A stretch of DNA of 60,480 nt, the filler included, from Hausera hauseri (lineage: Eukaryota): NCBI GenBank assembly GCA_046269625.1. It is 10 parts of 10 records of this genome, joined end to end, with 100 filler letters (N's around TTAATTAATTAA, not from the genome) between each part and the next. Parts side by side here need not be neighbours in the genome. Positions count along the whole stretch, not along the records: positions 22,916 to 30,789 come from JBJURY010899205.1; 9 more parts are not named here. One strand, 5' to 3'. Shown one piece after another: positions 22,916 through 30,045 of this stretch (positions within the stretch are counted from its first letter, which is position 1; each line of letters starts with the position of its first letter). Both the position numbers and the translations under genes were made by a program. Below the pieces are notes generated by a model. The model saw only the letters and a program-made list of their open reading frames with translations. It was not told the DNA's origin and searched no databases.

Positions 22916-23129
22916 AAATCCATCTCTCTCTTCATAGGCTTCACTAAATCGAGCCAAATGCCTAGCTAGCTCTCTATTTGATGGTAATATTTTATTTTGT
23001 ATATAGTTTCTAACTGATTTTATCTCTGTATCTTCTTGCTAGTTTTGCTTTATTTTTTCTATGGACCCGCCCATGCTCCATACCGCGGCGACTACTTCTC
23101 TTCTTATCTTTGGTGCTTCAGACATTCAT

Positions 23130-24440
23130 GATAAATAATCTGCTTTTGCATTCCGTGTCCCCGGTTTGTATTGAAAATTTAACGTATAGGTCTGTAGTTT
23201 GACGTCCCATCGTAATAATCGACTATTTTGGTTTTAATGCTGTTTCAACCATTGTAAGGGTCGATGATCCGTATATACCAGTAGTGGTTTATTCTCACTG
23301 ATATATGGTGAGAATACTTCCAATTCTAATATTACGGCTAATAATTCTTTTTCGATGACTGCGCAGTTCCTTTGATGTTTATTTAATTTCCTAGAGGCAT
23401 AAGCTACTGGATGTTCTTTCCCATCTTTACCTTTTTGGGAAATGACTGCTTCTATTCCGTAGTCACTTGCGTCAGTTGCTAATATAAATGGTTTGGTCAT
23501 GTCTGGATAAATTAAGATTGGGGCGTTCAGTAGTCTTTCTTTTAATTCCTCAAAAGTTCTTTGGCAGTCACTTGTCCATATCACTTTTTCTAGATCTTAA
23601 CGTAGTAACTCGTATAAGGGTTTGGCTATTTTTCTAAAATCTTTTATGAATCTTCGATAATAATTTGCCAATCCCAGGAATCGACGTAATTCATTAAATG
23701 TAGTTGGTTTTGCAAAATCTTTTATCTTTCCTAAAAGCTTATCTTGCGGTTTCACGCCGTGTTTATCGACTCGGTGTCCAAGGAAATCGACTTCCGCTCG
23801 GGCAAATGAATATTTCTTTGGGTTTATCTTTAGACCCATTATTTCACATCTATCAAAGAGGTCTTGTAGGTCTTTCAAATGTTGTTGAAAATCCGAAGAT
23901 GCTATTATTACGTCATCAATATAGACCATAGCATGTGGGGCATCCATGAGTAGTAACTCAGTTCCTCTTTGAAAAGTTGGTGGCCCATTTTTTAATCCAA
24001 ACGGCATTCTATTAAACTCCCACAATCCTTCGCCTATCGAAAAGGCTGTTTTGGGTTTATTATCTTCTTTTATTTCCACTTGCCAATATCCTTTTTGTAA
24101 ATCTATGGTTGTGAATATCGTTGATCAGTGCAATTTATCTAATATTTCGTCGATTTTTTGGTAGTGGGTAAGTATCCGTCTTGGTTATTTCATTTATCGC
24201 TCCGTAATCTATGCAGAATCTCATGGCTCCATCTTTCTTCTTGACCATTACTACGGGTGCTGTCCATGGAGAGCAGCTTGGTCGAATTATCTTATTTTCC
24301 CTCATTTCCTCTATGATTTTCTGAGCTTCCTGCTTTTTATCATAGGCTAAGCGATATGGTCGTTTCTTTATCGGTTTATCTTGTCCTTTCTTCAGCTTGA
24401 TGCAGTGTTGTATCACCTTTATCGTTTTTAGATCGCAATC
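23130..24440 (-). pseudogene. pol: Gypsy reverse transcriptase and RNase H
   Basis: [90 protein letters not shown]. Confidence 0.96.
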
Positions 24441-24859
24441 ATTTTTAGAAAATCGCTGGTTGTTCTTTTCCAATAATTGGATTAACATTCTCTTCTCGTC
24501 CTTAGTCAATATTTTGCAGTGTTCTAATTTTTCTTCCCAATTAATTTTTGTGGCTTTTTTATTTCCCTTACCTTTACCTATTTCCTTCTTCAATTTCTCC
24601 TTCATCATCTTTTCTATCTTATCTACATCTGATATCATTGAATTAGTTTCTTCTTTTAGTGTTTCTTCGATCTCCGTTACTTGTCTCAATCTTGTATTTC
24701 TTTTTAATTGTTTTTCCTTGTTTCCAGTGCTGCAAATTTGTAGGTGAATCTTTCCATTTCTCACTTTATCTACGTGTGGAGCGATGATGATATCGTACTT
24801 CTCCATGGTTCGTGAGAATGGTTCGAAGTGTATGTACGTGGCGAGTAGTTTGCTTTCTA

Positions 24860-25300
24860 TTCAGCCAGGCACTATCATTTCGGAAAGTGGAGGGATTACG
24901 ACATCCTTTATTAATGAAACTGATTTTTCATGTTGATCCTTGTTAAAGGTTTTTAATTGACCCGTCTCTAAGTCGATATAGGCATTCTATAACTGGTTTA
25001 ATATGTTGCATCCGATTAGTATATCGTTGGTCAAATTTTTTGCCACTCTAATGGTGTGATTTATTGTTTGGTTGCAAATTTTAATTTTCGCATCTAATAC
25101 CATCTTTATTTCTTCTTCCATGCCAAATTCTCTCACATTAATTAGTGTTGTGTTCGGTTTTCTTAGCTTTCTTCTTAATTCTTTAGGTAGCTGGTCTTTT
25201 CCCATGATTGTGGTTGTGGATCCTGTATCCAACTAGGCTGTTAGTGGATATCCGTTTACTTCTATATTTATCTCTGGCCTTAGAGGTGATTGTGGCTCGT
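24860..25300 (-). pseudogene. Retropepsin-type aspartic protease
   Basis: RPEINIEVNGYPLTA*LDTGSTTTIM..DILIGCNIL (DTG and ILG motifs). Confidence 0.9.
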
Positions 25301-28050: not shown

Positions 28051-28229
28051 TTGTTCCTATCTCGCCTATTCCGAATGTCACTTATCTATGTTCCTGTGAG
28101 TCTTTCCCTTCTTCTTGCCTTCGTCTGTACTGTGACATCCTGCGTATCACCTACAGGGTGCTGTTCTATGTCTTGGGATTCCATTTCCCTTATTATATTT
28201 CCTACTGTTTCCTCGGCTCTTGCATCTGC

Positions 28230-28463
28230 ATGTATTTCCGTTATCGTAATTGGGTTATACATTTCACTTTTACATCCGACTCTTAATAGATTATCGTAAC
28301 TGTATAATGTTCTGCCGTAGAAACTTAAAAAATGTGTCTTTTCTTTATAGAAGGGCTCTAGTTCCCCAATCTTTTCCCGTAATGTTAGTATATCATCTGT
28401 CTTATTCATCCTTATAACTCTCACATCTTGATTTCCTTCCCGCAATGTTATCCTTACCGTCAT
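28230..28463 (-). CDS. Ubiquitin-like domain within ORF 28086-29240 (Gag extension)
   Basis: VRITLRE-VRVIRM-NKTDDILTLREKIGELE-FLSFYGRTL-DNLLRVGCKSE aligns to ubiquitin (EPSDTIENVKAKIQDKE, RLIFAGKQL, RTLSDYNIQKE). No C-terminal GG. Confidence 0.65.
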
Positions 28464-29215
28464 ATTTCTTCCTTTTTCATCTTCGGCTGCTTTAGCTAGC
28501 ACTGTGCGCACTATTTCTCTCACTGGACTCGTATCGTGGGCAAGTAGTAATAGTTGAAACAAAATCTCGTCCAGTTTCTGTGTCGATATTTTGTTATAAA
28601 TTAACTTAAATATTGTAGTAGTTGTCCTATCTACGTCAACTATGTTTTCCAGATCAACTGTCATTTCTGATTGAATAATGTTATCCTCCTTGTCCATATC
28701 TACACCCGTGCCTCGTATCACTTGTTCCAATATTGTTTCGTCAAATACTTTCACAGTTTGGTCTTCCTCTGTTTCTGTTGCAGATGTGCTTAGGCTACTC
28801 TTGGGTGTACTGAGATTACTCGTCCTTCGTCCTTTCTTTTCTTTTTCCTTTTCTAGTTCACTACTATCTACGGAGGTTTCTCTTGATTCGATATCATCAG
28901 TTATTTTTTGATTACTTTTCTTTCCTCCTTGTCGTGGTTTTCTGCCTTTTGTTTTCTCTTCCACTACATAAATACTATTTTCCTTTAATCTCTTCTGCTG
29001 AGTTTTATAATCTTTTAGCTCCATGTGTAACTGAGTTAACATACGTTGAGATAATATATCATTAACATAATTTACGCTTTCCTTCTTATTCTTCCTTTCA
29101 TGTTCAATATTACTTTCTTCTGTTTCATACTTTTGATCGGATGACTCGTCCGCCGTGGCTGACCTATAGTCCTTTTTATTTTGCTTATAAGGCTTTGAGG
29201 ATTCTCTTTTACGTG

Positions 29216-30045
29216 ATTTGCATGGTTTTGCTGTGACCATATTTGTTACAATTAAAACATTTTAACCTTCCTTCAGCATCTATATTAGGTAATTTTCTTT
29301 TATATTTTAGGGAAGACTTCTTTTTACTCCTTGCTTTTTCATAATCGTTCTTTAATTTAAACCTAACCTTCTTTTCCACATCAGATTCTGCTTTTGTAGC
29401 CGACGTATGGGATGGACTTCTGTTTCTGTCATAACGTTTGTATTTTTGCGTATTATCATTCTTTTATTTATCGTAATTACTATAACTTTTAGGTTTGTTC
29501 CATCTATATAATTTAGCACCCCGTTCGGCTTTTCCCGCCGTCCTTATAATGTCTTAAAACGTAAGTAGATCTGTTTGCAAGATTATCGTTCGTAACTTTT
29601 CTTCCAACCCATATTGGAATTGGGTTAATAATGCATTATTTCTTATTGTAACATAAGAATATGCTATGACTGCTAACTTCTCCAATGTACAGACAAAATC
29701 TTGGACTGATTCATCTTTGCGTTGCCTCCTTCTTATATATTGTTCTATTCTCGCCTTTCCAGAGGTATCTATCAAGAATTTCAGAGGCAGTTTTTCTTTT
29801 ATTCCTTTTCAATCCTTCTTATCCTCGTCGGGAATTTGGAAATAAATTGTCAAAGCAGTCCCCTTTAAGTGAAGAGGCACTATTTCTGTTCGTTGTTGGT
29901 CCTCCAACCAAAACTCTGAGTCCACTTCATACTCCATAATAAAATCTTGCACATCCTCCTTACCTGAGGACTTCTTCATCGGCAAGGTGACGTCAGCTTT
30001 TGACTGAATCACCTGCTCTACTATATTAGCGTTCTGATTTGCCAT
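29216..30045 (-). pseudogene. gag: Gypsy Gag (capsid plus CCHC zinc knuckle)
   Basis: SGKEDVQDFIMEYE..W..VPLHLKGTALTIY, RRQRKDESVQDFVCTLEKLA..LLTQFQYGL, KCFNCNKYGH/xAKPC (the knuckle is split by a frameshift at about 29232). Confidence 0.88.

Follow-up and report, generated by a model that had tools for sequence, protein, structure and literature searches.

We analysed a retroelement in a 60,480-nucleotide stretch of Hausera hauseri DNA, filler included (assembly GCA_046269625.1), referred to here as the window. Because the window consists of ten unrelated short contigs joined by N padding (spacers at 5081, 17066, 22816, 30790, 35286, 40100, 44460, 51712 and 56322), adjacency across the spacers is meaningless. 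The element lies on the minus strand of one contig (22,916–30,789; JBJURY010899205.1) and encodes, from 5′ to 3′, Gag with a CCHC zinc knuckle, a charged linker, a ubiquitin-like (Ubl) domain, a Bcl-2-like domain, a signal, a gB-like envelope glycoprotein (Env), a protease, a dUTPase-like segment, reverse transcriptase (RT) and RNase H. An earlier reading of this DNA, hereafter the original prediction, proposed a single Gag-Ubl-Bcl2-Env-Pol polyprotein; the fusion of Gag to Env is upheld by a homologous protein, P0007, and that of Env to Pol is only probable, as judged from variable sites and from breaks in other copies at 25359–25368.

Domain organisation and decay of the element

The 5′ leader runs to the contig end (30046–30789), possibly includes part of a long terminal repeat (LTR), and is covered by other copies of the element, some with deletions. 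These other copies were sampled by aligning assembled contigs of two sequencing runs (X1 and X2), from two studies, to the element; X1 possibly derives from the source sample itself. Gag (29220–30045), comprising a capsid and one CCHC knuckle, matches the Pfam families Retrotrans_gag (E = 0.02) and zf-CCHC (E = 0.057) and contains three stops. Its open reading frame (ORF; 30045–29230) ends with one half of the knuckle, and the remaining half lies in the neighbouring frame, just as the original prediction of a frameshifted knuckle had it; at this break, near 29231, other copies vary in length, with loose ends at 29232 in 22 X1 and 7 X2 contigs.

As had also been predicted, a single frame broken by point stops alone extends from 29240 to 27156. 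It opens with a charged low-complexity linker (28716–29219; identical to P0007 at 43 of 141 aligned positions), followed, directly before the Ubl domain, by a segment at 28479–28715 for which a Pfam search returned no family (19 of 79 identical). The Ubl domain (28236–28478; PF00240, E = 0.07; 29 of 79 identical) is a weak call, and the Bcl-2-like domain (27597–28046; PF00452, E = 1.7e-4; 62 of 150 identical) has an internal stop at 27866 and flanking stops at 28088, 28049, 27596 and 27533; both score under their Pfam cut-offs. A predicted hydrophobic internal signal (27453–27512), with a hydropathy peak at 27503 that recurs in P0007 and in a second homologue, P0008, precedes a chuvirus-type (gB-like, class III) Env (25368–27452). 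Env matches PF24664 (Monjiviricetes_fusion) above cut-off in three pieces, covering profile positions 1–149, 292–506 and 531–636 of 653 (E = 2.5e-14, 2.2e-36 and 2.1e-09), collinear with P0007; it is interrupted by frame breaks near 27060, 26645 and 25921 and by stops at 27158, 26872 and 26351. The order of linker, Ubl, Bcl-2-like domain, signal and chuvirus-type Env agrees with the one first proposed. Hydrophobic segments at 25834 and 25744 close Env, and the tail that follows abuts the protease without a spacer, again as anticipated, the env-tail ORF ending at 25280, where the protease match starts.

Between env tail and pol lies a frame break of this copy (25359–25368), at which alignments of other copies break and third-position bias changes frame. 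Pol comprises an aspartic protease (24990–25280; RVP, E = 2.2e-09) with a stop at 25235 beside the catalytic motif, a dUTPase-like segment (24678–24920) that the original prediction had missed, RT (23768–24420; RVT_1, E = 5.3e-25) with a frame break near 24156, and RNase H (23186–23578; RT_RNaseH, E = 5.4e-36). The dUTPase-like segment is a weak call from a PDB search, in which all three matches at E ≤ 10 were dUTPases (best E = 0.022). The region 3′ of RNase H (22916–23185) is cut by the contig end, which is also the left end of the reported feature, ahead of any integrase match, such that the 7,130 nt from the Gag start to the contig end do not include integrase. Repeat comparison found no LTR pair on the contig, which likewise carries no integrase or target-site duplication. 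Judged by its Pfam domains and their order (Gag, protease, RT and RNase H, as in gypsy), the element is a member of Ty3/gypsy (Metaviridae).

This copy is dead, a decayed genomic copy, with 19 in-frame stops over its coding frames and six frame breaks (at about 29231, 27060, 26645, 25921, 25363 and 24156). The insert between Gag and Env, counted to 27531, has 5 stops in 570 codons, compared with 8 in 816 for Pol and with 60 and 54 in 569 for the other two frames of the insert; because its stop density equals that of Pol and is far below that of the off-frames, we infer that the insert was coding and decayed along with the rest. At least five of the 19 stops coincide with sites that vary among other copies (40 sites listed, 1,158 more), and the five insert stops are absent from the 40 listed sites.

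The Ubl and Bcl-2-like calls are accompanied by matches in the PDB. With the Bcl-2 segment as query, 17 of 19 PDB matches at E ≤ 10 belong to the Bcl-2 family, the best being BAX (E = 0.077), and in the alignment to BAX a BH2-like motif is clear and BH1 is degenerate. A three-sequence profile (A1) retrieved, at E ≤ 5, only the RAD23A UbL (two matches; best match for the Ubl domain, E = 0.25) and Bcl-2 family chains (eight). Matches to TcdA4 (E = 0.88), V-ATPase G (E = 0.43), Spo0A_C (E = 0.0065–0.021) and ThsA (E = 0.63) were dismissed as due to chance.

Homologous proteins and further copies

An HMMER search of 1.84 billion representative proteins yielded two matches, among them P0007, a stop-free protein of 1,130 amino acids (aa) that runs from Gag to mid-Env in one ORF. 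Its Pfam matches comprise CCHC, ubiquitin (E = 0.031), Bcl-2 (E = 0.055) and Monjiviricetes_fusion (6.3e-19). The Gag of P0007, which matches the Arc2 capsid (E = 0.0068), is 43% identical to that of the element over 160 aa, and identity across the insert and the start of Env is 33% over 687 aa, with the next two Env pieces also matching in collinear order. Conservation is uneven: 69 of 129 residues are identical at the Env start, and the Ubl (37%) and Bcl-2-like (41%) domains are better conserved than the spacer between Bcl-2 and the signal (1 of 28). All six X positions in residues 1–725 of P0001 align opposite P0007 residues. In P0008 (175 aa), the end of a Bcl-2-like domain (Pfam Bcl-2, E = 8.9e-4) is joined to the signal and Env. 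At the level of protein sequence, P0007 thus shows Gag, Ubl, Bcl-2 and Env in one ORF in a relative of the element. Word-based protein searches for relatives matched none of 1,052, 327 and 17 candidates, and related-locus scans of 314, 20, 124 and 344 candidates gave no relative.

The two runs contributed 17,557 (X1) and 2,091 (X2) aligned contigs, most of them 90–95% alike, which covered 30 of 30 bins in each run and included contigs bridging the env tail and protease (25200–25409 and 25179–25367). This supports a multi-copy family carrying the insert, and since diverged copies fill all bins in two runs, the arrangement is not the product of mis-assembly or of an isolated nested insertion.

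Relation to Burro and other env-bearing retrotransposons

According to the original prediction, no element of this layout was known to have been described; this is contradicted by the planarian Burro/GYPSM1 elements, giant gypsy-like LTR retrotransposons for which portions of a 2019 review give the same domain order in one polyprotein (PMC6431247). Those portions list Gag-CCHC, Ubi2/SUMO-like, BCL2-like, mononegavirus-related Env, protease, dUTPase-like, RT and RNase H, with env between gag and pol, and mention decayed Burro copies (PMC6431247). Likewise, in our element Env lies between Gag and Pol and in frame with Gag, a Ubl and then a Bcl-2-like domain stand ahead of Env (by weak, concordant matches in the element, P0007 and P0008), and the weakly matched dUTPase-like segment lies between protease and RT. 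The differences concern size and cargo: Burro spans 4,873–5,140 aa, as opposed to about 2,900 aa estimated here, and has two or three knuckles instead of one (same portions, PMC6431247). In place of a giant ORF, the element has about 850 codons from Gag to the signal, one knuckle, and two Cys between knuckle and signal, and Pfam gave no match from Gag to Env, in the element or in P0007, for the Burro domains RING/AIR1, Smc, MATH, BIR, ankyrin and midasin. Because the size and extra-domain features differ, we file the element as Burro-like and not as Burro proper. The layout is already published and is not a new class; the compact size is what differs.

The order GAG-ENV-POL with a gB/chuvirus-like env also places the element with the HSV (herpes simplex virus)/gB-type errantiviruses of Chary and Hayashi (2026), who, in the passages available to us, report gB-type GAG-ENV-POL Ty3/gypsy elements in Nematoda, Bryozoa and Platyhelminthes (PMC13524379). 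Smed_errantivirus_1–6 of Schmidtea mediterranea share this order, an env of this type and a multi-copy state, and the env of our element has several motifs in common with all six displayed rows, as judged by eye, a likeness that may hint at the Platyhelminthes C1a env group (PMC13524379, in part). If the coordinates listed there include 3 kb flanks, Smed_1–4 span 8.5–8.9 kb, and the coding span of Smed_errantivirus_1–4 is similar to that of the element (PMC13524379, in part). Within the portions available, Burro, ubiquitin and Bcl-2 cargo go unmentioned in the main text, the "bcl" matches displayed falling within "subclade". The nematode and bryozoan GAG-ENV-POL metaviruses (Sacco 2022) similarly carry a gB-type env between gag and pol but fall into separate Pol clades, and the passages on them are silent on cargo domains (PMC13524379).

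Anakin is likewise an LTR retrotransposon with a captured chuvirus glycoprotein, yet it belongs to BEL/Pao, whereas our element is Ty3/gypsy (PMC7642597 and PMC10084718, in part); the Pfam matches here are RVP, RVT_1, RT_RNaseH and Retrotrans_gag, with no Pao-specific family. By eye, the motifs common to the Schmidtea rows are missing from the three mosquito BEL env rows. Neither Ubl nor Bcl-2 was seen for Anakin in the results and discussion of PMC10084718, and the parts of that study seen here report no clear case of gypsy capture in arthropods (Dezordi 2023). Troyka was rejected as a counterpart, since it has no envelope according to the passages seen (PMC12440569). Our literature search, outside of which lay Repbase and subscription papers, found no description of Ubl together with Bcl-2 in a compact env element, the Burro review being the sole relevant item; the compact form may already be catalogued. 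Overall, the element probably belongs to the flatworm-type GAG-ENV-POL errantiviruses as a compact, Burro-like member, a kinship suggested by domain order and by the likeness of env seen by eye.

Coding strategy, remaining contigs and implications

In this copy the env tail and the protease lie in different, overlapping frames. Variable sites were assigned to codon positions (39 distinct places from 40 listed rows; five further rows): 3′ of 25360, 11 of 12 fall on the third codon position in the pol frame (p = 4.7e-05), and 5′ of 25368, 14 of 27 do so in the env frame (p = 0.036). X1 contigs have loose ends at 25364 and 25367 (7 + 7), X2 contigs at 25364 and 25360 (3 + 1), and the same junction shows one gapped X2 contig and a dip in depth. 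Other copies thus stop aligning at this point, which is the pattern that short contigs would show if a length difference were confined to this copy or its sub-lineage. The data lean towards such a copy-specific break, and Env and Pol are likely continuous in one polyprotein. We consider it quite probable that the element is a decayed copy from a multi-copy Ty3/gypsy family in which env sits between gag and pol and which is likely a compact relative of Burro, and that its active form likely encoded one Gag-Ubl-Bcl2-Env-Pol polyprotein.

In such a polyprotein, to judge from viral polyproteins in general, the hydrophobic stretch that follows the Bcl-2-like domain would serve as an internal signal and direct Env into the endoplasmic reticulum. 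Signal peptidase would free Env at its N-terminus, and the C-terminal membrane anchor of Env would bring the chain back to the cytosol, with Pol following. The protease of the element would then excise capsid, nucleocapsid, Ubl, Bcl-2-like domain, protease, RT-RNase H and integrase. Particles would enter other cells by means of Env, a presumed type I, class III fusogen. Within the particle-making cell, the most likely effect of the Bcl-2-like domain would be to restrain apoptosis; an anti-apoptotic role is the likeliest reading, and the family member that it matches best in the PDB is pro-apoptotic. Only an odd number of true crossings by the segments at 25834 and 25744 leaves Pol cytosolic.

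Several points weigh against this explanation. Two crossings at the end of Env would make Pol luminal, so one of the two hydrophobic segments must lie on the membrane surface. The isolated Bcl-2 segment scores 22.5 bits against a curated cut-off of 31.4, and the isolated ubiquitin segment 13.4 bits (its sole match) against 25.4; single-sequence fold prediction of Ubl and Bcl-2 lends no fold support (predicted local distance difference test score, pLDDT, of 36), and Pfam returned no dUTPase match for 24678–24920. Summed contig depth, which is not copy number in this mapping method, is lower over gag and the insert (1.3–4.4k) than in most env and pol bins; relatives may lack the insert or have diverged there, and faster divergence would likewise lower depth. 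At the junction, P0007 ends mid-Env and hence is silent on the fusion of Env to Pol, no indel row reaches a share of at least 25%, and an X1 contig (25230–25409) crosses gap-free, like the element itself. The last two points, together with the overlap of the env-tail and pre-protease frames in this copy, suit an alternative in which Gag-Ubl-Bcl2-Env is ORF1 and ribosomes enter Pol by programmed frameshifting within the env tail, the arrangement of ordinary gypsy elements with two ORFs. A programmed frameshift would yield the same switch in codon position, which fits either reading. However, many contigs of other copies end exactly at 25359–25368, one being gapped there, no canonical slippery heptamer occurs in 25280–25621 of this copy, and Burro is one ORF as far as the available portions of its description go (PMC6431247), which makes this alternative unlikely in our view.

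It is more doubtful still that some other invertebrate lineage evolved the layout separately from Burro and captured Ubl and Bcl-2 by convergence. [quoted passage not shown] The lower summed depth over the insert and the shortness of the contig would suit a viral or host fragment nested in an ordinary gag-pol element, or a mis-assembly, either of which the original prediction named as grounds for abandoning it. We regard this as highly improbable: the intact, collinear P0007 contradicts it, diverged copies cover all bins in both runs and bridge the junction, decay is equal across the parts, and no terminal repeats flank the insert.

The other contigs of the window hold further repeats and gene fragments. 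A second decayed gypsy element, with RNase H and integrase by Pfam, occupies 17166–22815 (minus strand), its gypsy genes giving way to some 3 kb that is rich in ORFs and includes a hydrophobic segment near 19400, possibly 3′ env or accessory genes; this part gave no env family match in three X-read frames. Having its own RNase H, this contig was rejected as the missing 3′ end of our element. Additional gypsy RT fragments (RVT_1, E = 3.2e-14), together with a pair of related stretches that are 70% alike and face opposite ways, are found at 50404–51402 (plus strand), 49556–49971 and 553–968. A RING-finger ORF (30901–32247, plus strand; zf-RING_2, E = 9.3e-10) with an in-frame stop at 31761 is on a separate contig from the element. 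A dispersed repeat family, 70–89% alike, recurs on four contigs (5185–7308, 32547–34202, 42217–43596 and 51817–51962), one copy containing a Cys/His-rich ORF (34031–34564). The ORFs at 53695–55456 (minus) and 34565–35224 (plus) recall what we take to be Polinton/Maverick capsid and polymerase-associated genes, for which Pfam gave no match. At 1239–1892 (minus), a CPSF_A match (E = 2.4e-4) looks like a splicing-factor gene fragment, and 9500–17000 is a long purine-rich simple repeat with N runs inside.

The compact form, with its intact natural homologue P0007, separates the Ubl and Bcl-2-like cargo from the many other Burro domains and forms a bridge between Burro and the smaller Schmidtea GAG-ENV-POL elements. 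Tentatively, and with somewhat less than even confidence, we suggest that compact Gag-Ubl-Bcl2-Env-Pol may be the core that was enlarged into giant Burro: a flatworm retrovirus-like lineage in which a viral Bcl-2 and Ubl would have been under selection since before RING, BIR and MATH were acquired, so that the 8.5–8.9 kb Schmidtea errantiviruses would carry an unrecognised apoptosis regulator. Burro1 is expressed (PMC8532177, in part), and a BIR/RING module has been reported for it (PMC13465017, in part); alongside that module, the element opens the testable question of whether host cell death is controlled by a Bcl-2 that a retrotransposon carries.

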